Below, in pieces: positions 4,631-18,249 of a stretch of 64,000 bases of DNA (position 1 is the first letter of the stretch; every line of letters starts with the position of its first letter). The position numbers were made by a program, and so were the translations under genes. Source of the DNA: Anaerohalosphaeraceae bacterium (GTDB taxonomy: Bacteria > Planctomycetota > Phycisphaerae > Sedimentisphaerales > Anaerohalosphaeraceae); contig CAXXSL010000001.1 in assembly GCA_963675525.2 (NCBI GenBank), positions 274,755 through 338,754 on the forward strand, written 5' to 3'. The notes below the pieces were generated by a model that ran no database searches, was not told where the DNA came from, and saw only the letters and a list, made by a program, of their open reading frames with translations.

Positions 4631-5362
4631 ATGGGACCGGTTCTACATGGTTTGATAAAATTACAGCGTGTGGAAAATCGCCTCCGTGCGGTCAAGACAA
4701 AATTGACCCGAAGCCGACGGGGCGTCATCTTTCAGGAAAACCAACTCCGTACGCTGCAGAGCGGACTTGAAGCAAAGCTGGGAGAAATCAAACTGACCAA
4801 GATCCAGGTAGATCGCCTGGAACTGGAACTCAAGAGCCGGGATGAGCACATCGAAAAACTCCGCGGTCACTTAAATCTCGCACGTACCAACAAGGAATAT
4901 TCCGCGCTCCTGACCGAACTGAATACCGCCAAGGCCGATGATTCCAAGCTTGAAACGCAGGTGTTGGAACTGATGAAGAATATCGAGACCGACGAAGCGG
5001 CCTGTGCCGAACTCAAAAAGCAGATCGAAGAACAAAAGATCAAAATGGAAGAGATTCGTAGCGAGGCCGAGGCCAAAGCTTCGGCGTTCCAAAAAGAGAT
5101 CGACGATATGCAGGCCGAGTGGGATGCGGCAGCCAAGGAAGTCACCAATAAAAACGCATTAGCCATTTTCGAGCGGGTGGCGGAAACCTATGACGGCGAA
5201 GCCATGGCCGAAGTGGGAGGAGTGGAAGAGAATTCAAGCTCTTTCAGTTGCGGCGGGTGTTTTATGGGAATCCCTGCTGAAGTGGTGAACGTCCTCAGCA
5301 GTCACGACGAGATTGTTCGCTGCTCAAACTGTACGCGAATTTTGTATCTGAAAGAGGCATAA
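4631..5362 (+). CDS. Coiled-coil protein with C-terminal C4 zinc ribbon (DUF164/CT398-like)
   Basis: Long heptad coiled coil, NKEY motif, C-terminal CGGC...CSNCTRILY. Confidence 0.9.
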   Translation: MGPVLHGLIKLQRVENRLRAVKTKLTRSRRGVIFQENQLRTLQSGLEAKLGEIKLTKIQVDRLELELKSRDEHIEKLRGHLNLARTNKEYSALLTELNTAKADDSKLETQVLELMKNIETDEAACAELKKQIEEQKIKMEEIRSEAEAKASAFQKEIDDMQAEWDAAAKEVTNKNALAIFERVAETYDGEAMAEVGGVEENSSSFSCGGCFMGIPAEVVNVLSSHDEIVRCSNCTRILYLKEA

Positions 5363-5429: not shown

Positions 5430-6491
5430 ATGAGCAAACAGGTAATTATTCATACCGATGGCGGCAGCCGAGGCAACCCCGGCCCCGGGGGAGCGGGATT
5501 TACTCTGGAAGACGAAAAGGGCAATGCGCTGAAGTCCTGCGGGCTTTATCTGGGAAGAACCACGAATAATGTTGCCGAATACACCGCCATTAAAGAAGCA
5601 CTGAAAGCCGCCGGAGAGCTCGGCGCCGAATCCGTTAAGTTATTCAGCGACAGCGAATTGCTGGTGCGGCAGTTGAACGGTCAATACAAAGTCAAAAGCC
5701 CGAATCTCAAACCGTTTTACGCCGACTGCATGGAACTGTTGGGTGAGTTTAAGGCATGGCAGGTGATGCATGTGTACCGTGAGCAAAACTCCCGCGCCGA
5801 TGCACTGGCCAACGAGGCGATGGATAAAAAAGCGGACGTTCAGTATGGCCCCGCGGCGGCTGCAGAGCCCAAGGGAAAAAAGCTTCGGCTGGGAATTCTG
5901 CTCAGCGGCGGCGGACGGACGATGGTGAATATTCAGGACGAAATTAATGCGGGACGCCTGAATGCCGAGATCGTACTGGTCATTAGTTCCCGTTCGGAAG
6001 TCAAAGGCAACGAACGTGCCTGTAAAATAGGACTGGAGCCCGTTATCATTCGTAAGAAGGATTATCCTGAGCTTGCCGATTTCAGTAAGCGTATTGAAAA
6101 GGAACTGGATAAAGCTAACGTCGATCTGGTTGTTCAGGCCGGTTGGCTGTGTCTGTGGCATATCCCGGCCGATTATAAGAACCGCGTGATGAATATTCAC
6201 CCGGCACTGCTGCCCAGTTTCGGCGGGCAGGGCATGTGGGGCCATCATGTCCATGAGGCGGTACTGAAAGCCGGCTGCAAGGTTTCCGGCTGCACGGTAC
6301 ATTTCTGCACGAACGAATACGACGCCGGACCGATCATCGTCCAGCGGACCTGTGAAGTTAAGGATGATGACGATGCGGACACATTGGCATCACGCGTATT
6401 TCAGCAGGAATGCCTGGCCTACCCGGAGGCGATTCAGCTATTCGCCGAGGATCGTCTGCAGGTTTCCGGCGGCATTGTTAAACGCATTTAA
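5430..6491 (+). CDS. purN: Fusion: N-terminal RNase HI domain + C-terminal phosphoribosylglycinamide formyltransferase
   Basis: RNase H: TDGGSRGNPG, TNNVAEY, SDSELLVRQ, HVYREQNSRADALAN; linker PAAAAEPKGKK; PurN: LLSGGGRT, NIHPALLPSFGG, GCTVHF...YDAGPII. Confidence 0.92.
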   Translation: MSKQVIIHTDGGSRGNPGPGGAGFTLEDEKGNALKSCGLYLGRTTNNVAEYTAIKEALKAAGELGAESVKLFSDSELLVRQLNGQYKVKSPNLKPFYADCMELLGEFKAWQVMHVYREQNSRADALANEAMDKKADVQYGPAAAAEPKGKKLRLGILLSGGGRTMVNIQDEINAGRLNAEIVLVISSRSEVKGNERACKIGLEPVIIRKKDYPELADFSKRIEKELDKANVDLVVQAGWLCLWHIPADYKNRVMNIHPALLPSFGGQGMWGHHVHEAVLKAGCKVSGCTVHFCTNEYDAGPIIVQRTCEVKDDDDADTLASRVFQQECLAYPEAIQLFAEDRLQVSGGIVKRI

Positions 6492-6539: not shown

Positions 6540-7934
6540 ATGTTTGGACAATCCATTCAGCATCGTTTATTAAAATTGAGCCGACCGGACCATATAGAGC
6601 ATCGCAGTGATCGTGCGTTATTGGTTTGGAAAGATATTCCGCACTGGATGGTGGTCGATGGGGAGATGAAGACATTTCTCTTTTTGTTCGAAGATACCCG
6701 GAATTTTTCTGAAATGATCCGCAAAAACCCCCATCTTCAGCCTCATCAAAAAGAACTGCTTGGCGTTGTTAAAGATCTGCATAAAAAAGGCGTTTTGACC
6801 AGTGTTGATGTCGCAGAGCTTAAGAATAAATCATTGAATTCGCTTTTGCCGATTGAAAACATCGCATGGAATCTTACCCACACATGCAATCTGCGGTGCC
6901 GGTATTGCTATTATGCCGACAGCCTGAATCATTCAAACGGCAGCGAGCTTTCGGCGGATGAAGTCATCAGCTTTCTTAAAATCGTCAAGCCGTTTATTTC
7001 CAAACGCGCAACCCTGACGGTATTGGGTGGTGAGCCGCTGTTGTATCCTGATAAGCTGATTGAAGTCTGCCGATTTGCACGCAAGATGCGAATGAATCCG
7101 CTGATCTCCACGAATGGGACGCTGATCGATGATGCCTTTGCCAAAGAAGCCAAGCGGATTGGGCTGGAGATTCAGGTTTCTCTTGACGGTCCCGATGCCG
7201 AAATGAATGACCCGTTACGGGGTGCGGGAACATTTGAGAAAATCCGAAAAGGCGTGGCGATTCTGAATAAGCATGATGTGCATACGATTCTCAGTATGGT
7301 GTGCTGTCGAAGTAATTTCGATTCGTTGAAAGATTTTCTGGATTTGGCAATTGAATGGGGCGTTGCCGAGGCCCGGTTTATCCCGCTTAAACAGATGGGC
7401 GGGGCCAAGTCCGAAGCGATGGAAATGGTTTCGCATTATGAAATTGTTACGAAGGCGTATCAACTGCTTAAAGCCTATCCAGCGTATCGGGATTTACTGG
7501 GGCGGGATTGCCTGTCGATTCTTGCCAATACCTGCCGGTATTCAGCCCGGCGGGATTCCTGCGGCACCGGTTTGCAGACGTTTTTGCTGGATGCCGACGG
7601 GGCGTTGTATCCGTGCCTGAATCTGAATCAACCGGCGTATGTGTTCGGTAACATCCGCGATAAATCGCTCGATTTTGCGAAAATTTGGAAAAAACACGAA
7701 TCCCTGGGTAACATTCGCACCTGCACAAGCGTCCATAATACAGAGAGGCCTTGCAGCAACTGTTTGGTGAAGTATTGGTGCCTGGGCGGATGCCGGGGCG
7801 AGACTGTGGTCAATACGGGGGATTTAAAAGCTCAAAGTATCCATTGCGATGACTTAAAAAAGACGATCCTTGAAATATTCTGGATTCTTGCGGAAAATCC
7901 CGATATGATAAAAGCATACGAGCAAATGGGCTAA
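6540..7934 (+). CDS. Radical SAM/SPASM domain protein with ~100 aa N-terminal extension (possible RRE/PqqD-like domain)
   Basis: CNLRCRYC (CxxxCxxC), GGEPLL, STNG, QVSLDG; SPASM Cys set CGTG..YPC..CSNCLVKYWCLGGC..C. Confidence 0.92.
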   Translation: MFGQSIQHRLLKLSRPDHIEHRSDRALLVWKDIPHWMVVDGEMKTFLFLFEDTRNFSEMIRKNPHLQPHQKELLGVVKDLHKKGVLTSVDVAELKNKSLNSLLPIENIAWNLTHTCNLRCRYCYYADSLNHSNGSELSADEVISFLKIVKPFISKRATLTVLGGEPLLYPDKLIEVCRFARKMRMNPLISTNGTLIDDAFAKEAKRIGLEIQVSLDGPDAEMNDPLRGAGTFEKIRKGVAILNKHDVHTILSMVCCRSNFDSLKDFLDLAIEWGVAEARFIPLKQMGGAKSEAMEMVSHYEIVTKAYQLLKAYPAYRDLLGRDCLSILANTCRYSARRDSCGTGLQTFLLDADGALYPCLNLNQPAYVFGNIRDKSLDFAKIWKKHESLGNIRTCTSVHNTERPCSNCLVKYWCLGGCRGETVVNTGDLKAQSIHCDDLKKTILEIFWILAENPDMIKAYEQMG

Positions 7935-7945
7935 AGGAGCGTACA

Positions 7946-8254
7946 ATGCAGGTATTTGGGCAAAGTTCGACAGTGCTGGCCGAGTCGAAACCTCCCTATG
8001 TTCATCTGGGATACATGTCCGCCTGTCCAAGCACGGGATTCGGAGTATTCGATTTTGAGTTATTTGGTCCCGGGGTAATTTTGTTTTTGGTGGGTTATCT
8101 GATCGCGATGAAGATCAATTACGGTTGGCTCATCGGCGGCATCGCGGGGTTGTTAAAGAAATTCGGGCTTCTCAAAATTCTGGCAGCGATTCTATCTATG
8201 CTGTTGCTTTTTGCGACCGTCTTTGTATGCTATTTCGCGTGGATGTTTGATTAA
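7946..8254 (+). CDS. Small membrane protein with N-terminal GQS/PYxHLGY motif (putative radical SAM substrate 1)
   Basis: RBS AAGGAG overlapping the rSAM stop; N-terminus MQVFGQSSTVLAESKPPYVHLGYMSAC; 2-3 hydrophobic segments. Confidence 0.75.
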   Translation: MQVFGQSSTVLAESKPPYVHLGYMSACPSTGFGVFDFELFGPGVILFLVGYLIAMKINYGWLIGGIAGLLKKFGLLKILAAILSMLLLFATVFVCYFAWMFD

Positions 8255-8302
8255 AGAAGACATGAATACAAGGACGCAAGTATACAAGGAAGGATAGCCG
8301 GC

Positions 8303-9073
8303 ATGGAAATCCTCGGACAAAGCACGAAAGCAACCACACAGCATCCTTATATGCATTTGGGATATCTGGCAGCAAGCAACCGGGATGTATTTATGATTCC
8401 TTTAATTCCCGGATTATTATTGCTTGTTTTTGGGAGCCTTCAATTATATTTTCGCAAGAAACGTTATTTCAAAGCAAGTATTGCTTCAATTATTGGGGGA
8501 CTTATATTCCTTACGATGGCGATTTCGTTTTTCTTTGATAAACCGAATATACCTTCAAGGATTCTAACCAGTATAAATTATCACGCTTTACACATATCAT
8601 TGTCAAGTTTCGCCAAAGAGAACGACAATAACCTGCCAGATTCAAAGCACTGGTGTGATTTGTTAATTTCCGGAACTTATGCAGAACCGAAATATTTCAC
8701 TCTTTCGGGTGTTAAAGAAGGTGAAAGTGCATATGCTTTGAATGAGAATGTCCTTAATCTGACATTGTCTGAAATTCCGGCGGATATGGTGCTTTTATTT
8801 GAAACCAATCTGGGGATTGAAGAGGAGCGGACAGGCAGTTTTCTTTCAAGAGATTACGTAAAGTCTTTGGGGATCGAAAAAGATCATAAGATATTCCAGA
8901 ATCGCTGGAACCAAGTTGGCGGTGCGGAGGATATTACGACTGAATATCACAAGGGAGAGGGGGCTTGTGTTTTGTTTGCCGGTGGACATTGCGAATTTGT
9001 AAAGACAGGAGATATTGCGACATTAAAATGGCATCCCGGAGAATCCGAGATGCCATTGGAAATATCTCAATAG
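8303..9073 (+). CDS. Membrane-anchored protein with N-terminal GQS/PYxHLGY motif and planctomycete-type C-terminal domain (putative substrate 2)
   Basis: N-terminus MEILGQSTKATTQHPYMHLGYLAAS; two TM segments; WCDLL, YALN, VLLFE, WNQVGG and H-X9-DG-like tail HKGEGACVLFAGGH. Confidence 0.8.
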   Translation: MEILGQSTKATTQHPYMHLGYLAASNRDVFMIPLIPGLLLLVFGSLQLYFRKKRYFKASIASIIGGLIFLTMAISFFFDKPNIPSRILTSINYHALHISLSSFAKENDNNLPDSKHWCDLLISGTYAEPKYFTLSGVKEGESAYALNENVLNLTLSEIPADMVLLFETNLGIEEERTGSFLSRDYVKSLGIEKDHKIFQNRWNQVGGAEDITTEYHKGEGACVLFAGGHCEFVKTGDIATLKWHPGESEMPLEISQ

Positions 9074-9117: not shown

Positions 9118-10191
9118 TTATTCTTTCCCATCCCAGAGGTAGAGCAGCCGCGGGGCGGCGAGTTTGTCCAGCAGTTCGCTTTCGATATTGATCGTTCCTT
9201 TTTTGCTCTGTGCTCCCATTATTGACCAGACAGAGAATTTTTGATTGTACTCAACAATCCGCGCATTGGATAGATGCGCCATTTCTTCTATTTTCGTGAC
9301 CGCGGCGTCAAAGTAGCCGACCTCGTCGATCAGGCCCTTATCCATGGCTTCGGGAGCGGTGAAAATGCTGCCGTCGGCCAGTTGACGCACCTCGTGTTCG
9401 GCCAGGTTTGGGCGGCCTTCATCGACCAGGTTCACAAACCGGTCATACGCCGGGGTGATGATCTTTTCGCTGAGATACGTCTTTTGTTCGTCTGTCGGTT
9501 CATGGAACATACTGGGCCAGTCTTTGCGTTTGCCGCTCTTGATCGTGACCGGATTGATGCCGAGCTTTTCTTCGAGCAGTTCCTTGACGACCATATAGTT
9601 CATGATGACGCCGATGGAGCCGGTGATAGTGGTCGGTTCGGCCATGATCTCATCGCAGGCGACCGCCGAGTAATAGCCGCCGGACGCGGCGACCGATTGC
9701 ATGAATCCAAGGACGGGCTTGTTCGTGGTTTCTTTAAACCGGCTGATACAGTAGTGGATCTGATCGCTGGCTGAAACCCCGCCGCCGGGACTGTTGATGC
9801 GGAGGATCAGGGCTTTTACATTGGTGTCATTTTCCGCACGTTCGACCTGCATGTTGACCCACTTGCTCATTTCGCCGTCAATGATGCCGACGAGGTTGAT
9901 GACCGCGATCTTCTGACGATGTGAACCATCCATCAGGATTCGTTCTTCCAGACCGTCATCGTGATAGCCGCCCCCGCTTCCGCCGGAGAGAACAGCACCC
10001 ATGGCGATGATACCAATAAACATAATGCCGTTGGCCAGAACCGACAGGGTGATCACAATGCCCCAGAATATCTTCCAGCCGGAGCCCTTTTTCTTTTTGG
10101 GGTATGGGTTATACATCGGGGCCGTGAAGTCCGGGATGTTTGTGGCCGGCGGGGTCTGGGGGGCATTAGGGTCCTGTGTAAAATCGTCCAT
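9118..10191 (-). CDS. sppA: Signal peptide peptidase SppA (S49 family)
   Basis: RINSPGG, AASGGYY, TGSIGVI, KSG.RKD, ADGSIF; N-terminal TM. Confidence 0.93.
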   Translation of the reverse strand: MDDFTQDPNAPQTPPATNIPDFTAPMYNPYPKKKKGSGWKIFWGIVITLSVLANGIMFIGIIAMGAVLSGGSGGGYHDDGLEERILMDGSHRQKIAVINLVGIIDGEMSKWVNMQVERAENDTNVKALILRINSPGGGVSASDQIHYCISRFKETTNKPVLGFMQSVAASGGYYSAVACDEIMAEPTTITGSIGVIMNYMVVKELLEEKLGINPVTIKSGKRKDWPSMFHEPTDEQKTYLSEKIITPAYDRFVNLVDEGRPNLAEHEVRQLADGSIFTAPEAMDKGLIDEVGYFDAAVTKIEEMAHLSNARIVEYNQKFSVWSIMGAQSKKGTINIESELLDKLAAPRLLYLWDGKE

Positions 10192-11847: not shown

Positions 11848-13166
11848 CTAATCTTTCGGCAGTTTAAACTCGTATTCATGGATTTCATTGTCAAATGAAA
11901 TGTTATCCGGTGGTTTAATGTCAAGTTTCTCGGTCTTTTTTTTGATTTGACTCCGCGATAAATCCTCGCCCTGACATTTTAATTTAAAACCATCCTCTGT
12001 TTTGATGATTAGAAAGGGTTTATTGCTGAACAGATCTTTCGGGCTGTTGAAGGGTATTGTTTTTGGGATTTTCTTTGTTTTTGGATATTGAATTAGAAGT
12101 CTTATTCCGGCTTCCAAAGCATTCAGTTTTGTGCGGATTTTTGTGTCGATGGAAAACACTGTTGTGCTGTATGATCCATAAATACTTGTAAATAAAAAAT
12201 CACAATTTTCGATATATTCGATGTCGACATCTTCAAATGCAGGAATTTGTCTGCCAGAAATATCGAATTTTTTATCAAGGACATCTATATACTCTATGAA
12301 GTATTGTTTGAATTGGTTGCGAAGTTCATCTCCAAGTTCACTACACTTTTGCACTGCCTGAGGGTAGGGCAGGTCAAGATAACTTTGACGTTTCAGCATG
12401 TAATCTCGGTAAAACTTCAGATTACGTATATAGAAATCTTCGCTTAATTTTTGAACAGGAATTCCCAAGTGTCGGTCCAATATGTGTCTTTATAGATGTA
12501 TTCCTTGGGGTGCGTGAGGATTCTTGTGGTGTATGCAATTTCGTGATCTATCGTATCTTTGTATGATATTTTTTGACGTTTCGATTCATTTCTGATAAAA
12601 GTTTTTGCCATATAGAGGTCTGTGACTTGGCAGTTGGTGTGACGATTTAGGTATTCACGGATATCATCATAGGTCATTGATCTGAGGCCCAGAGCAACTA
12701 AATGGTCAATTAAGACGCCTGAGTCTATGTGTGAAGCAAGTTGGAGGACTGGTTCGAATAAGGTGTTAATTCCTATATCCGGGTCTTTTCTTTCTTTATA
12801 CTTGCCATCTGCGAGAAGTAATAATGTCGTCTTTTTGGCTTTGCTTAAATAGGGGTTAACCGAGTAGATGCCATCTGCCAATGGATCAAACTGCCAGTCA
12901 CAATGTTCGATTTGTGCGGCTTTTTTTAGCAGGTCGATGACGGGCTGCTGGCGGATGAGGTATTGTTCTACCTGCGGAGTGATTTTGACATCTCCGGTTG
13001 TATAATCGGACAGGTCAAAACCGTTGGGTTCTTCGTAGAGGTCGAAGGCTTTCTGGTACCAGTAGGCGGCGTTGTCGGGGGTGAAGTTGTTTGGGTCGTA
13101 TTTGGCGAATGCGGAGAGTGATAGTATCAAAATAGCCAACACGCATAATTTTACCCTGTTTGGCAT
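11848..13166 (-). pseudogene. Secreted protein paralogous to 16667-17827, split by one frameshift near 12480
   Basis: ORF 12444-13166 (signal peptide, PDNAAYWYQK, HCDW) and ORF 11848-12480 (PKDLFSNKPF...GFKLKC...IHEYEFK) match the N- and C-halves of the paralog. Confidence 0.75.
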
Positions 13167-13200
13167 TGTTCTATTCCTTCTCTTGAACCCTTTCAGGGTT

Positions 13201-13228
13201 ATCGGGCGACTCACGTCGCCGCGCTTTT
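13201..13228. repeat. REP-like palindromic repeat
   Basis: ATCGGGCGACTCACGTCGCCGCGCTTTT identical to 20511-20538. Confidence 0.8.
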
Positions 13229-13349
13229 GTTTATCTTCATCCATGCCCACGGTTGGCGTGGGCATGGCACCCATTTACTTTGTACTCTATGGTATAAACG
13301 CCGGAAAGTCAAAGGTGTGGCGAAAAAATGGATTTTTGCGTTTTTTTGT

Positions 13350-13373
13350 GAACTTTTCGAGGGGGCCATGTTA
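13350..13373 (+). promoter_or_regulatory. Putative ECF-type autoregulatory promoter
   Basis: GAAC-N16-GTTA just upstream of the ECF sigma gene. Confidence 0.5.
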
Positions 13374-13396
13374 CTTTATGATGGTAAGACTCGAAG

Positions 13397-13906
13397 ATGA
13401 TGAAACGGGAAACCGTACAATCCGGCCGGATCGCGATGCTTGAAGCCCTGTATGCTGAGCATGGTCCACATATTCTGCGATATTTGAATCGTATCGTCGG
13501 GCCTAAGAGCTCTGAAGATGTGCTTCAGGATACGTTTGTGCAGGCTCTTTGTTATATTGAAAGACTTAGCGATGTGAACATTCCAAGGGCATGGCTGTTT
13601 CGTGTGGCTCGCAATCTGGCGATGAATGTCCTGCGGAAAAAGAAAATGGCCACCCATATCGACCTTGACGGCCTTGTTCACCCGGCTTCGCTTGAAGATC
13701 CCAGGTTGGCAACAATGCGGCGTGCGATTTACAAGCTGTCCGACAATCATCGCGAAACCATTATGCTGCGATGGTACGATCAGCTTAGCTATAAAGAGAT
13801 TTCTCAGGTTCAGGATATTTCAATCGGTACCGTCCGTTCGCGATTGCACAATTCACTGGGACAATTGCGAATGCAAATGGATATAGAACTGGCGGTCGAT
13901 CCATAA
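13397..13906 (+). CDS. ECF RNA polymerase sigma factor
   Basis: EDVLQDTF, AWLFRVARN (region 2); LSYKEIS...IGTVRSRLH (region 4). Confidence 0.93.
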   Translation: MMKRETVQSGRIAMLEALYAEHGPHILRYLNRIVGPKSSEDVLQDTFVQALCYIERLSDVNIPRAWLFRVARNLAMNVLRKKKMATHIDLDGLVHPASLEDPRLATMRRAIYKLSDNHRETIMLRWYDQLSYKEISQVQDISIGTVRSRLHNSLGQLRMQMDIELAVDP

Positions 13907-13924
13907 CAAAGAAAGGAACGTAAC

Positions 13925-14452
13925 ATGAACAGAGACCTTTTAGAACAATTACTGATGGATCAGGCATTGAACGAACTGTCGCCGGAATCGACAGCGCTGC
14001 TGGATGCATACCTGGGCGATCATCCGGAAATGCATTCTCTTGCCGATTCGATTCGCGAAACGGTTGCGATTGGCGAAAGGGCTGTTCATGCCGAACTGCC
14101 GACACGTTTACCTCCGCTGCCGAAAGAGAAGCTGTTTTCGCACAAACGAACGGCTCGGTGGTCGATGACGGCTCGATGGGGATCGGTCGCGGCCTCGTTG
14201 ATAATCGGATTTGGTCTCGGGATATCCGCAACGCTTTTGCAGAATAAGCCCTCACAAACAGATTCCGACACGATCGCTTACCATGTTCAATCGCAGCCGG
14301 TATCGGGTGGGCTCGAGACTGCCCGGGCATTCTGGTCGAGTCAAACATACATGGATCGCTATCAAAAGAACCGCAAGGACCGGACCCAAAGAAATGAAAA
14401 TACGGAATTACAAAAACAAATCCAACAATTCAAAAAGAGAGGTCTATTATGA
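13925..14452 (+). CDS. Putative membrane anti-sigma factor
   Basis: Follows ECF gene; ASD-like N-terminus (DQALNELSPE...AYL) and single TM (VAASLIIGFGLG). Confidence 0.75.
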   Translation: MNRDLLEQLLMDQALNELSPESTALLDAYLGDHPEMHSLADSIRETVAIGERAVHAELPTRLPPLPKEKLFSHKRTARWSMTARWGSVAASLIIGFGLGISATLLQNKPSQTDSDTIAYHVQSQPVSGGLETARAFWSSQTYMDRYQKNRKDRTQRNENTELQKQIQQFKKRGLL

Positions 14453-15840
14453 ATAAGAAATTTATCGTCATTTCCACAATCATAGCAGGCGTGTGCTTAT
14501 TTCTGGTCGGCTGCCATCCGAAAACCATTACCTGGTCACCGGATGGACAGTGGGCGGCATTTTGCAATGATTATGGATTGTACTTTACGGATGGGCAAGG
14601 TGAAATCTCTTCACGCATGGCCGAAAAGGCCTATCGAGCCGAGTGGTTTTCGGACGGCAAACGACTGGCGATCGAACAATTTGTCACGTTGACCAGTTGG
14701 CAGCAGGTACAAAACACGGTCTCTGAAGACTATCGCGATAAATTTATTCAGTGTGCAGAGGGTTTGTTGGCAGTCAAAAATAAGCGAGATTGGGATGAGA
14801 AGACGAACATGCTGGAACATATGAATTTTCTTGATGAGGATGAGCTGGATGCGGTTCAGTTATATATCCGGGATATGGCTTCGGGCGGTTTTCCGAAGGA
14901 CGTGATTGCGTCATGGGGAGACTCTATTGAATTTGACTACCATTTCCTGCGGATTGGAACGTGGGACGGTGCCACTTTTACGATGGGTGAGCCGTTATGG
15001 GGTTCGCCGGAGCGAATCTGGGATATGCGGATCTCCGCAAAGGGCCATGTTGTTGCTTTTACCTCGGCCTTCCCCGGCGACTTTGACGAGGGGACCAGTT
15101 CTTCGCTTTGGGCCGCTGATGTCGAAACGAAAGAAGTTGTGCTGTTGGACAAGAATTCGTCGCTGTATCCGGATTGGGATGCTGCGGGCACCCGTTTGTT
15201 TTATGTGCGTTCGATTGGCAAAGAAAGCAGCGATAACCCGCTTGGCACGCTGCTGAGCCGCCAGATTTGCGGCCAAGACGGCAACTTGTTAAGCGATTTG
15301 CCGGAACCGCAGTCATTAGCGGGTTTGGTGGCCGGTGAATTTACGAAGGTGCGGTGTTTGCCGGATGGGCGAATTGTGTTCTCTTCGATGGAGGTTACGC
15401 TGCCGGTTATCGGAAAGGATATTCCTGAGCAAAAGCAGTTGTTTGTACTGGACCTGCAGCGGCAGTCCACGATTACCCGCCTGATTCCCCGGAGCGAACA
15501 GAGCAAAACAGAAGGCTATAGTCTTGATCACTTCGAGATCAGCCCGGACCAAAAGCAGATTTCAATCCCGGATGATGAAGGGCGTGTGATGGTCCTGACC
15601 ATCGCAACGGGGGAGTTTGTTGTTTTGCAGGCACAGAAGGTCGGAGACATCCGGACGGTTCCGGTGTGGCGCTATCCTGATGAGTTATGCTATATCGATG
15701 AGTTGAAGGGCGGGCTTTTGGGCGACAAGACAAGAAAAGAAATTATGCTTCGGAAGGTTACCCCGGACGGCGAATGGAGCGACCCGCGCGCAATCAGCAA
15801 GGACTGGTCCAAAGAAGTTCGCCAGGTCGTATTGGATTAG
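14449..15840 (+). CDS. Lipoprotein with TolB/WD40-like beta-propeller repeats
   Basis: Lipobox LVGC; WSPDG, WFSDG, ISPDQ repeats; ATGA overlap with the upstream gene. Confidence 0.75.
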   Translation: MNKKFIVISTIIAGVCLFLVGCHPKTITWSPDGQWAAFCNDYGLYFTDGQGEISSRMAEKAYRAEWFSDGKRLAIEQFVTLTSWQQVQNTVSEDYRDKFIQCAEGLLAVKNKRDWDEKTNMLEHMNFLDEDELDAVQLYIRDMASGGFPKDVIASWGDSIEFDYHFLRIGTWDGATFTMGEPLWGSPERIWDMRISAKGHVVAFTSAFPGDFDEGTSSSLWAADVETKEVVLLDKNSSLYPDWDAAGTRLFYVRSIGKESSDNPLGTLLSRQICGQDGNLLSDLPEPQSLAGLVAGEFTKVRCLPDGRIVFSSMEVTLPVIGKDIPEQKQLFVLDLQRQSTITRLIPRSEQSKTEGYSLDHFEISPDQKQISIPDDEGRVMVLTIATGEFVVLQAQKVGDIRTVPVWRYPDELCYIDELKGGLLGDKTRKEIMLRKVTPDGEWSDPRAISKDWSKEVRQVVLD

Positions 15841-15880
15841 ATGTAAACACATGTTTACTGTTTATGAAAGGGAATTGAAA

Positions 15881-16276
15881 ATGCGTGGATTAAAAATTTG
15901 CCTTTGGATATCCGGGATCATGTGCCTGTTGGAGGCGGTGGGTGTATTCCTGCCTGTCTCGGCACTCGCACCTTTTTGCACGTTCATGGGAATTGAATCA
16001 CTTCCGGATTCGGCATTATTTTTCTATGGACTGCGGGTTATGTCGGTCATGGCTGCGGGAATAGGAGTATTTTTCATCATCCTTGCTCTTGGTCCTATGG
16101 ACTATGGAATCATGGTGCCTTTTTCCGGCGTTGGGGCGATTGTACTCGGTGTTATCTGCGGCATCGTGGGAATTTCAGTAAAAGTACCGGCACGATTGTA
16201 TCTGAGTGATTTTTTGAGTTGTATTGTAATGGGCGCCCTGATCCTTATGTTCTGGCGACAAAGCAGGCTCAGATAG
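15881..16276 (+). CDS. Four-TM membrane protein of unknown function
   Basis: Four hydrophobic segments; RBS AAAGGGA before ATG. Confidence 0.7.
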   Translation: MRGLKICLWISGIMCLLEAVGVFLPVSALAPFCTFMGIESLPDSALFFYGLRVMSVMAAGIGVFFIILALGPMDYGIMVPFSGVGAIVLGVICGIVGISVKVPARLYLSDFLSCIVMGALILMFWRQSRLR

Positions 16277-16350
16277 TATGCAAATGAGTAGCAGGTGCAG
16301 GCAGAACACCACCTGTCTTTGTTATATTCTTGAATGCATAAGGAGATATC

Positions 16351-16602
16351 ATGGGAAAGATCGAAAAGATGTTGTTCTGGTGTGCCGTCATGGGATTTGT
16401 CGTGATGTTCATCTGGATGGGCATGATAATATTTGCAGGCGAAGCGATATATTCATTCCATTCGGGACTTTGGCAAATGGATAGATTGATCTCAAAGGAA
16501 TTGTTTTTGTCGGCCAATTTCATCGGGATGGGCATGTGGAAAATGGCCGTGATTCTTTGCTTTGCCATTCCCTGGCTGGCGATGAAAATTGTTGGGAAAT
16601 AG
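16351..16602 (+). CDS. Small membrane protein (DUF6868-like)
   Basis: RBS AGGAG; pattern FWC...IY.FHS..W...GM..WK....IPW.A. Confidence 0.65.
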   Translation: MGKIEKMLFWCAVMGFVVMFIWMGMIIFAGEAIYSFHSGLWQMDRLISKELFLSANFIGMGMWKMAVILCFAIPWLAMKIVGK

Positions 16603-16629
16603 GGTTATGAAATGTTAAATAAAATGAGC

Positions 16630-16654
16630 GAGGCAGGTCGCAGCGACCTGCCTC
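16630..16654. terminator. Hairpin between convergent operons
   Basis: Perfect 11-bp stem GAGGCAGGTCG/CGACCTGCCTC. Confidence 0.6.
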
Positions 16655-16666
16655 CTGTGAGAATGC

Positions 16667-17827
16667 TTATTTTGCGATTTTAAACGTGTATTCGTTGATT
16701 TTACCTTCGATTTCGGCTTGGCGGCAGCGGAGGGTAAAGCCCGTATCGGTTTTTTCGTATTCAAACGGTTGTCCGCTGAAAAGGTCTTTGGGGAAAGCGG
16801 CGGGCAGTTCGTCCGGCAGGTTTCCTTTTTTAGCGTAGTAGCGATAGAGTTGAATGGCGGCTGACAGTGCGTTTTGGTGTGTTCTGCGGCGTATATCAAT
16901 ATCGCATACCTTTGTGGTTGCCGGAGCAAGAAGGACCGAGCCGAAAGCTTCCTTTTTGCCGGCTTCGTAATCCTTTTCGGGAACCTTCTCTAATTCCTGA
17001 AATGTTGTTATTGCCTGCTTATAAGGCTGGTCCAGGGCGGCGATATATTTATCAAAAAGTTGCTGATAGTACTCCGCAGAAGCCGCTAAGAATTCCTCAG
17101 AACCTTCGGTTAGCAAGGGCAGGTCCTTTTTCAGTTCTTCATTGGGGGCAACCTGTTCTTCTAAAAGCTTTTTTTTCTCCGGGGTCATTTGCATAATTGC
17201 ATCTGCATAATATCGTCTTTCATTCAACATTGCCGGCTTGAGATCGAGCTTGTTATATTCGGGACGTTCGAGTTCTCGCTGAAGTTCTGTTAACAGTTTC
17301 TCATCCGATCCCATGACGTTGAGAACATCACCAATGGCATCATAGGTTAAAGCTGTCATCGCAGTTCCAACGAGATACGAGATAAATGTGTCATTGCCGA
17401 CGTGCCCGGCCATTCGCAAAACGACCAGGCATTGATCCATGGCCTCCTGAGTTTGACCTTCCTGTTTTTTGAGCTGTGCATCCGCCAGCATGATGTATGT
17501 AAATTGCCGCATGGTTGCCAGGTAGGGTATCTTCAGTGCCAGGCCCTGGGAAAAGTCCAGTCCCCAGTCACAGTTCGGAATTTCCGACGCTGTTTGAAGA
17601 GCATCAATCAATAGCCGTTTTTCCCCCAGATACTGTTGAATCTCATCGCTGACTTTGATTTTCCCTTTCGCGGCATCACGAAGCTGATCTCCTAGCGGAG
17701 CTTCGGGCCGCGAAAAATTGACCATGCATTTATAATAGACCAAGGCGGCGTTATCCGGGGGATAGGCTTGGGCGGTGTTTGCTGCAAACAGACAGAGCAG
17801 GAGTATCAGTATGGCTGTCTTTTTCAT
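16667..17827 (-). CDS. Secreted alpha-helical protein of unknown function (DNAA...CDW family)
   Basis: Signal peptide MKKTAILILLLCLFAANTAQA; PPDNAALVYYK, NCDWG, PKDLFSGQPF. Confidence 0.8.
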   Translation of the reverse strand: MKKTAILILLLCLFAANTAQAYPPDNAALVYYKCMVNFSRPEAPLGDQLRDAAKGKIKVSDEIQQYLGEKRLLIDALQTASEIPNCDWGLDFSQGLALKIPYLATMRQFTYIMLADAQLKKQEGQTQEAMDQCLVVLRMAGHVGNDTFISYLVGTAMTALTYDAIGDVLNVMGSDEKLLTELQRELERPEYNKLDLKPAMLNERRYYADAIMQMTPEKKKLLEEQVAPNEELKKDLPLLTEGSEEFLAASAEYYQQLFDKYIAALDQPYKQAITTFQELEKVPEKDYEAGKKEAFGSVLLAPATTKVCDIDIRRRTHQNALSAAIQLYRYYAKKGNLPDELPAAFPKDLFSGQPFEYEKTDTGFTLRCRQAEIEGKINEYTFKIAK

Positions 17828-17847
17828 TATTTGTTTTCCTTTCAAGT

Positions 17848-18249
17848 TTATAGTTCTTTCAAAATATCCTCTAAGGTGACACTGTCGGCCCGCGGTTGCC
17901 GATGTATTTGAGCTTTTTCAAAATATTCATCGAGCGCCGTTTGTCCGCCATTATTGAAGACGGCGTTTAAATGAGCCAGCGTCAATGTTGGTTCAGTCGG
18001 AATTTGCTGGACAATTTTCGGTGGTTGAATTATCTCTGTATGATACAACAGGCTGATACCGATCAATAGAACGGCTGCTGAGGCAATAGCATAATAGAGA
18101 AAACCGTGTGTTTTGGTCGGCTTTTCAGCAACATCAGAAATGATGTTGCTGACATTTTGATTCATCCTCCGGAGGGAATCGCCGGAAGGCTCTATCGAAG
18201 CAAGCTGATTGAGTTTTTCTTCGATTTGTTGTTCTGTATATTTATTCAT
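17848..18249 (-). CDS. Putative membrane anti-sigma factor
   Basis: Overlaps ECF stop; single TM (YAIASAAVLLIGISLLY). Confidence 0.7.
   Translation of the reverse strand: MNKYTEQQIEEKLNQLASIEPSGDSLRRMNQNVSNIISDVAEKPTKTHGFLYYAIASAAVLLIGISLLYHTEIIQPPKIVQQIPTEPTLTLAHLNAVFNNGGQTALDEYFEKAQIHRQPRADSVTLEDILKEL

Follow-up and report, generated by a model that had tools for sequence, protein, structure and literature searches.

This work concerns a three-gene cassette in a window of 64,000 nucleotides (nt) from the genome of an Anaerohalosphaeraceae bacterium (contig CAXXSL010000001.1, positions 274,755 to 338,754); the window refers here to this whole stretch. The cassette consists of three co-oriented and closely spaced open reading frames (ORFs) at 6540-9073, as the initial annotation had noted, with gaps of 11 and 48 nt between them. 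The first one (6540..7934, + strand) encodes a radical S-adenosylmethionine (rSAM)/SPASM enzyme of 464 amino acids (aa), with the Pfam models Radical_SAM and SPASM over their cut-offs. ORF2 (7946..8254, +, 102 aa) and ORF3 (8303..9073, +, 256 aa), both preceded by purine-rich ribosome-binding-like sites, encode predicted membrane proteins that begin with a common segment, hereafter called the tag. Their N-terminal sequences read exactly as first given.

The tag corresponds to residues 1-26 of ORF2 (7946..8023, +; Tyr18, His20, Tyr23; E 4e-9 with the genome-scan profile) and residues 1-24 of ORF3 (8303..8374, +; Tyr16, His18, Tyr21; E 5e-9). ORF2 continues with two predicted membrane helices (about residues 39-57 and 78-96) and has no head domain. 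ORF3 carries a helix hairpin with a basic loop and an H-X9-DG/DUF1559-type head, predicted to be extracytoplasmic (8537..9070, +) and delimited by its likeness to untagged proteins. The BLASTP alignment of ORF2 and ORF3 was restricted to the first 30-32 residues. The two proteins had been described as otherwise unrelated, and this holds for the sequence after the tag, which diverges, but not for the layout, as both share the tag followed by a two-helix hairpin. ORF2 had no Pfam match and the best scores of an Atlas search with it were just 0.75; orthologues of it were found in genomes G002 and G005.

A search of the whole genome for the motif had been proposed in the initial annotation. When the 4.12 Mb genome was translated in six frames, PY.HLGY turned up twice, each time in the cassette, against 0.04 occurrences expected from residue frequencies. 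Among 95,311 open frames of the genome, the tag profile retrieved ORF2 and ORF3 at E about 5e-9, and the next match (E 0.22) was dropped as an off-frame piece within another gene. Across three loci, those of the window and of its orthologues in G002 and G005, His-Leu-Gly-Tyr is constant and its codons differ synonymously, so this core is conserved at the protein level.

Linkage between the enzyme and the tag

The pairing of the enzyme with the tag is real and conserved, and it spans several bacterial phyla and some archaea. A total of 159 loci were examined, 152 of them gathered as enzyme relatives and 7 cut from whole genomes. With a threshold of at least 0.7 bits per column, 91 loci were assigned to the enzyme family and the other 68 (1.0 Mb in total), which hold other rSAM/SPASM genes, served as controls. 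Using a profile (A2) built from 60 tags, 58 of them drawn from the examined loci, a tag was found adjacent to the enzyme gene (within about 1.8 kb) in 74/91 family loci, in 1 to 3 copies, versus 0/68 control loci. All 100 locus tags were on the same strand as the enzyme, and the tag was present in 41 of the 50 groups that remained after merging the family loci at 70% identity.

The same association was observed in 652 whole genomes. In the 401 genomes of the same phylum as the window, the enzyme was found in 6, the tag in 4, and both, adjacent, in 3. In the 251 genomes of the phylum of G455 (an Armatimonadia record), the figures were 9, 9 and 8. Adjacent tags were found in 12/15 enzyme-bearing genomes; in G478, three divergent tags upstream of the enzyme were read by eye. 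Concerning tags without enzyme, the match in G182 was rejected as chance, being antisense to a transporter gene, and the tag of G655 lies at a contig start in an assembly where the enzyme was not found. Tagged genes away from the enzyme were also present in G460 (two further ones, on other contigs) and G457. Thus, the co-occurrence of motif genes and orthologs anticipated in the initial annotation was confirmed in loci and genomes, and a wide occurrence of the motif without the enzyme, named beforehand as counting against it, was not seen in the genomes searched.

Among the 17 family loci lacking a tag, 7 end at a contig edge just downstream of the enzyme. Three of the other ten (L010, L124 and L144) belong to clades often having an upstream tag, and their contigs stop there; the genome of L010 has a tagged gene on another contig.

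Sequence and position of the tag

The tag is an N-terminal segment of about 25 residues with the pattern M[KQR][IL][IVL]xx[SG]…[YF]xHx[GA]Yx[AS]A, whose first seven residues are hydrophobic and strand-like (M[KQR][IL][IVL]xx[SG]). Over 86 distinct locus tags, the His was conserved in 85, the Tyr three residues on (Tyr+3) in 86, [YF] at -2 from the His in 85 and [GA] at +2 in 84, the +2 residue being Gly in 65. Ala at +6 was present in 75/86 locus tags and in 115 of 127 matches outside the seed set. In these 127 matches, both His and Tyr were always present, and the His was at position 17 or 18 in 125. A profile search of 1.84 billion representatives retrieved 302 tag clusters (50% identity) at E<=0.001, and 148 of the best 150 match from residue 1 or 2 onward. 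Within the family, GQS and the PG further on, both noted in the window pair, turned out to be local variants. As for the residues suggested as modified, H-x-x-Y is the favoured candidate, as the His and the Tyr three residues on make up the invariant pair in the sequences, and Y-x-H is disfavoured.

Departures from the pattern were few. A paralogue at L106 has Tyr in place of His, and one divergent tag of G478 lacks the -2 aromatic. A conserved Cys was not found in the tag core: Cys appeared within the first 30 residues of 5/86 tags and near the core in 3/127 matches. Tyr-Gly appeared within the first 30 residues of only 8/86 tags and is absent from both tags of the window. The cores of some minimal carriers are divergent (FFHGMY, FIHPGY, FIHADY and LIHFGY in L008:11089-11310 of a Thorarchaeota record, L138, L141 and L121). 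One clade (L011, L012, L013, L016, L038, L187, L196, L199) has a FLHAGY-type core and a longer N-tail (about 60 aa); its helix 2 is followed by a lipobox-like Cys, and a CPBP protease is linked to it.

Sub-types of the tag track enzyme clades in a FastTree phylogeny of 55 family members and 4 outgroups, from which fragments were left out and whose deep nodes are poorly supported. This match shows co-inheritance only, since kin share labels.

The enzyme family

The enzyme is the founding member of an unnamed rSAM/SPASM family with at least 289 members, delimited by sequence: of the 7995 candidates that were scored, these are the ones related at E<=1e-50. Named relatives come from Planctomycetes, Armatimonadota, Lentisphaerota, Tepidisphaerales, Myxococcales, Riflebacteria, Thermodesulfobacteriota and Thorarchaeota. 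In viral contigs no family member was found, just 3 distant rSAMs (24-28% identity). Of 103 NCBIfam matches to the enzyme, the best 25 all fell short of their cut-offs (bits vs cut-off: StsB 145/625; MftC, the second-best match, 121/265; PapB 114/340; PqqE 95/381; SCIFF 81/425).

An N-terminal RiPP recognition element (RRE; RiPP, a peptide made by the ribosome and modified after translation) of the PqqD type had been proposed as a feature to look for in this enzyme. The structure model, built from 48 sequences (predicted local distance difference test, pLDDT, 92.9), shows an N-terminal domain (residues about 8-90; 6561..6809, +) of four strands followed by three helices. The model aligns with TigE (8VPO) from enzyme residue 4, over 406 residues (root-mean-square deviation 3.5, Z 26.8), and with CteB (5WGG) from residue 15 (Z 29.7). 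ChlB, tied for best match, aligns from residue 98 on (Z 29.4). Both the topology and the alignment to the N-terminal domains of TigE and CteB agree with such a fold, and the model therefore supports an RRE-like domain. W30, W36 and D40 of this domain are invariant in the 48 family members of alignment A1, and Pfam PqqD matched none of the 48.

Regarding the catalytic part, the CxxxCxxC SAM-cluster motif (C116, C120, C123; 6885..6908, +) is conserved in 48/48 sequences of A1. The SPASM region (7533..7847, +) contains eight Cys (C332, C341, C359, C405, C408, C414, C418, C436), which align with cysteines of CteB. Six of these positions are Cys in 48/48 and C418 in 47/48, while at C405 40 sequences have Cys and 8 have His. 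By number, these eight residues would be enough for two auxiliary clusters. The six active-site-proximal positions, taken from the definition in the available part of PMC10288494, are Y124, L162, S190, S214, L360 and N361, versus F-F-T-S-H-Q in CteB.

Carrier proteins and their topology

A membrane helix follows the tag in 83/86 carriers, the other three being fragments of 21-35 aa, and in 126/127 non-seed matches; usually it forms part of a hairpin. Lys and Arg are commoner after than before helix 1 in 78/83 carriers (5 equal, 0 fewer) and in 111/125 non-seed proteins (9 equal, 5 fewer). According to the positive-inside rule, basic loops stay cytoplasmic, so this bias would place the loop in the cytoplasm and the tag outside. 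In one clade, a lipobox-like Cys ends helix 2, which is consistent with a tag facing outward.

Carriers vary in what follows the helices. Minimal carriers (62-74 aa) consist of the tag and one helix alone, and 39/150 carriers have 115 aa or fewer. Among long tails, 85/94 fall in one GspG-like BLAST cluster and 74/94 have a GspG-like motif. PF08334 was found at E<=0.01 in 9/41 carriers scanned, 4 of them at or over the cut-off, and DUF1559 in 1; the Atlas feature similarity of carriers to GspG clusters (0.92) is a lead in the same direction. The class III pilin signal (basic leader, Gly, hydrophobic residue, Glu at +5) matched just 1/86 carriers, and processing of the carriers by a prepilin peptidase was rejected for lack of such a site. 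The carriers thus resemble one another beyond the tag: ORF3 differs in its head type, but across the family most of them share the hairpin and a GspG-like head.

In the ORF3 model, residues 1-27 are disordered and helices span residues 31-50, 56-78 and 85-106. Fold searches with this model yielded no match at E<=0.001 and no pilin match above noise, just helix hairpins at Z<8. The head has 37-46% identity to the untagged proteins P0130-P0135, of which P0132 scores over the TIGR04294 cut-off; untagged homologues of the head are named H-X9-DG or carry PF13828. The presence of this head on untagged proteins is direct evidence for a shuffling of tag and head as modules. Together with the co-occurrence and the RRE-like model, this supports the proposal of a tag that is portable, N-terminal and linked to the enzyme family.

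Two loci present another arrangement (L114:2338-2826 and L139:3492-3923), in which the tag and one helix are followed by TPR repeats. Judged by the charge bias, their TPR part would lie in the cytoplasm, an arrangement suited to passing a signal through the membrane.

Proposed mechanism

The preferred reading is that the enzyme binds the tag and cross-links the His to Tyr+3, and that the modified tip is displayed outside the membrane, held by the helix. Taken as a whole, this reading has about an even chance of being right, and its parts differ in strength: the gene linkage, the conservation of the tag, the fixed place of its His and the layout of domains are shown, and the steps that follow are inferred. 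Very probably the enzyme acts on the tag, with the N-terminal M-K-I-I-A-Q-S-type strand as leader and the Pro-rich stretch as ruler, because the minimal carriers hold nothing else to modify. The RRE-like domain would grip roughly the first seven residues, with the Pro-rich spacer setting His-x-x-Tyr into the active site. There, the 5'-deoxyadenosyl radical could abstract a hydrogen from the Tyr C-beta, and the resulting radical could then join onto the ring of the His, closing a ring of four residues (i, i+3) with a loss of 2 Da.

This link between the His ring and the Tyr C-beta, made in the cytoplasm before insertion, is proposed by analogy and falls slightly short of an even chance. It was chosen because His and Tyr+3 are the most invariant pair, a small residue lies between them, a paralogue has Tyr for His, and a His-Tyr bond is found in dynobactin, whose enzyme forms an N-Csp3 His-Tyr link according to the available part of PMC10288494. 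In the part available of PMC11851443, the cross-links made by rSAM enzymes cover three to five residues. As Cys and Tyr-Gly are wanting in the substrate, neither thioether nor splicease chemistry is favoured. The enzyme would act in the cytoplasm, before translocation of the N-tail, since it needs SAM and reductant. The short N-tail would then cross the membrane and end N-out, which the charge pattern makes likely. Finally, there is a slight preference for a tip that remains tethered, in many cases next to a pilin-like head, and gives the envelope a rigid site for recognition or for metal/redox chemistry; its role (recognition, metal/redox site or phage barrier) is a guess.

In its most extended form, the reading amounts to a new class of protein tailoring: a dedicated rSAM enzyme would put a His-Tyr cross-link on a transferable N-terminal tag, yielding a tethered, never-released, membrane-displayed RiPP on pilin-headed proteins of bacteria and Asgard-type archaea, with a metal/redox or recognition site. 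This full version is speculative and considered doubtful.

Several points weigh against the preferred reading. The linkage count of 74/91 is partly circular, as 58/60 profile seeds come from the same loci (the whole-genome test is less so), and the top-scoring tag matches overstate conservation. The topology is based on a hydropathy window and Lys/Arg counts, the exact bond was picked by analogy, and the passage of a ring-bearing N-tail across the membrane would have to be accounted for. The -2 aromatic is nearly as conserved as His and Tyr, and the DynA model NF041298 gives 106 bits versus a cut-off of 450, for which membership of that family was rejected. Moreover, the pairing is not universal, as two enzyme subclades have no adjacent tag. 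G086, G160 and G178, of one family, carry the enzyme with no tag genome-wide at E<=0.3; these copies sit directly behind an ExbD-like gene (L170:7413-8837, L171:897-2330, L172:8453-9478). In L122, L125, L130, L143 and probably L157, the enzyme has archaeal-type neighbours and its flanks are free of tags. G686 has a second enzyme copy, likewise without a tag on its short contig.

Concerning the tag-less copies themselves, that of G178 is interrupted by a contig end, and that of G160 has lost CxxxCxxC but kept the N-terminal and SPASM parts, being possibly a dead scaffold. A YcaO-like gene lies near L125 (L125:7459-13126) and L130 (L130:9845-13532), and an ABC transporter pair beside L125, L143 and L157, both annotated by eye. 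The clade among archaeal-type genes could possibly be a separate peptide system.

Alternative explanations

The rivals differ from the preferred reading in the product, the chemistry, the target or the function. The same enzyme and tag could yield a released small peptide, with the helix as an export or anchoring follower and a protease that cuts after Tyr-x-[AS]-Ala and strips the leader. The conserved Ala at +6 and the frequency of head-less carriers speak for it, as does the fact that in two subclades (BLAST groups of 6 and 4 loci; 4/4 tested over the Pfam cut-off) the gene immediately upstream of the enzyme encodes a CPBP (Rce1-like) protease; the tag-helix-basic cluster layout also recalls C-terminal sorting signals. 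However, no protease or transporter recurs beside the enzyme in the main clade loci, window included, the five CPBP and two exosortase genes of the genome are all away from the cassette, and a long tail of GspG type in most large carriers is hard to square with a disposable follower. Release is thus judged unlikely. A different chemistry on the same core is a stronger contender, although still less probable than not: a three-residue cyclophane between the ring of the -2 Tyr/Phe and the His C-beta, a link from His to the +2 Gly/Ala, a bicycle, or changes other than cross-links such as epimerisation, backbone scission or a one-carbon change as in HxsA. The near-invariance of [YF] at -2 and [GA] at +2, the acceptance of Phe at -2, the high rank of the triceptide enzyme ChlB among the structural matches, and the gain of 8 Da on the His motif of HxsA (from the portion of PMC13128918 at hand) are in its favour. 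Against it, Tyr+3 is invariant, the +2 Gly has no C-beta to offer, one G478 tag does without the -2 aromatic, and the Tyr-for-His change at L106 would be expected if His is the ring acceptor.

It is very improbable that the tag is merely a docking or topogenic signal and that the enzyme targets another part of the carrier, a small molecule or something other than the carrier. The enzyme clades without tag would fit, as would a full-length similarity to cofactor enzymes (MftC, AhbD and NirJ models) equal to that to peptide maturases. Nevertheless, nothing modifiable is common to the carriers outside the tag, the His and Tyr are invariant at a fixed distance from Met1, and the enzyme has an RRE-like domain. 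In terms of function, the cassette could be an HXS-like anti-phage envelope barrier. The patchy distribution of the enzyme, present in 2/14 other genomes of the genus, and the variable slot described below would agree with it, and the accessible text of PMC13128918 presents HXS as an rSAM-matured, exported His-motif protein. On the contrary, PADLOC gives generic viperin-domain matches for the enzyme and none for 4/4 carriers, no defence genes recur as neighbours in the examined loci, and the tag has no HxS repeats; this function is consequently held to be quite improbable.

Genomic surroundings of the cassette

The cassette occupies a slot between a purN-type gene and sppA, both considered to be outside the system. 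On the left lies an RNase H-formyltransferase (PurN-type) fusion (5430..6491, +) and on the right an SppA-type peptidase S49 (9118..10191, -). The same slot is empty in G007 and G011, and in G001 it holds a sulfatase-like gene (read by eye) instead of the cassette. In two cassette-free genomes of the genus, the distance from the purN-type fusion to sppA is 75-144 nt. SppA was rejected as a dedicated protease of the system, as it adjoins purN in cassette-free genomes too. The RNase H-PurN fusion had full-length matches in 5/5 genus genomes searched, and a coiled-coil zinc-ribbon gene (4631-5362) lies upstream of it.

Further along the window (11848-18249), similar exported-looking proteins (12444-13274, 16667-17845 and, partially, 11848-12480) have a common N-terminal PxNAAxxY-like segment. 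By eye, they alternate with two extracytoplasmic function (ECF) sigma/anti-sigma-like pairs.

Significance and comparison with known systems

The enzyme-tag system is apparently undescribed, as no description of the tag or of its pairing with the enzyme was found in the literature searched, with most subscription journals outside coverage. HLGY, HLAY, HVGY and HAGY do not appear in one supplement file of PMC10288494, a file which also lacks 'DarE'. An unnamed family is now paired with a probable substrate motif, and the pair could be tested with a 25-residue peptide. If the His-Tyr (i, i+3) link is true, it would add an enzymatic macrocyclisation of a new kind, whose short N-terminal handle is portable, is already fused by nature to different proteins and could be useful for peptide engineering. 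The preferred reading, if true, would further carry the logic of RiPPs over to integral membrane proteins that are modified ahead of their insertion, and would offer a clue to the many pilin-headed membrane proteins found in Planctomycetota and Armatimonadota.

As far as the sequences indicate, the system works like an RRE-fused rSAM/SPASM RiPP maturase, yet it fits no named family. The features of these maturases are present: CxxxCxxC, eight SPASM Cys positions, an N-terminal RRE-like fold in the predicted model and an adjacent leader-core gene. CteB (5WGG/5WHY), TigE (8VPO) and SuiB have the same three-part architecture and an enzyme gene beside a leader-bearing substrate. However, identity to them is about 20%, and the tag, a substrate without conserved Cys, forms the N-terminal end of an integral membrane protein. 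Membership of the sactipeptides or ranthipeptides (StsB, CteB, PapB) was rejected, given the missing donor Cys and the missed family cut-offs. The splicease target motif is Tyr-Gly, and the PlpX type was discarded because so few tags, and neither in the window, contain it.

Dynobactin carries a three-residue His-x-Tyr ring. Its enzyme DynA (NF041298) is an rSAM/SPASM protein making a His-Tyr link, the chemistry proposed by analogy for the tag, but dynobactin is a released antibiotic and here His-x-x-Tyr is on a membrane protein. Triceptide synthases (ChlB, XncB, HaaB) resemble the system in their short aromatic-containing core, and ChlB matches over the catalytic domains; [YF]-x-H and H-x-[GA] both occur in the tag as candidate three-residue cores. 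In contrast, ChlB is devoid of an N-terminal RRE, and the invariant pair of the tag is four residues apart on a membrane-bound carrier. The spacing from leader to core is short in PqqA, and the precursors of pyrroloquinoline quinone (PQQ; PqqA-PqqD-PqqE) and mycofactocin (MftA-B-C) resemble the tag in this and in their invariant Tyr. Nonetheless, the tag Tyr has an internal position ahead of a membrane helix, and this membership was rejected from the PqqE and MftC scores and because none of the other, accessory genes of these pathways recurs in the neighbourhood. P450 biarylitide enzymes likewise join His and Tyr, according to the part of PMC12150307 available.

Regarding the carriers, their head domains resemble the GspG pseudopilin and H-X9-DG (DUF1559, DUF4190) proteins, but they lack the class III signal and have an extra helix and the tag in its stead. 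PEP-CTERM proteins have their motif-helix-basic unit at the C-terminus and the carriers at the N-terminus; an exosortase target was rejected, as no exosortase recurs in the loci and the two in the genome are unlinked. Hxs models were not among the best 25 of 103 NCBIfam matches to the enzyme. In the HXS system (HxsA-D), as presented in the available sections of PMC13128918, rSAMs modify a His motif in the cytoplasm and the protein works outside the inner membrane. HXS has two rSAMs plus HxsD, five HxS repeats and a peptidoglycan-binding domain, whereas the tag system has one RRE-fused enzyme and a single H-x-x-Y. Of rSAM-matured proteins that act beyond the inner membrane, HXS comes closest to the tag system.

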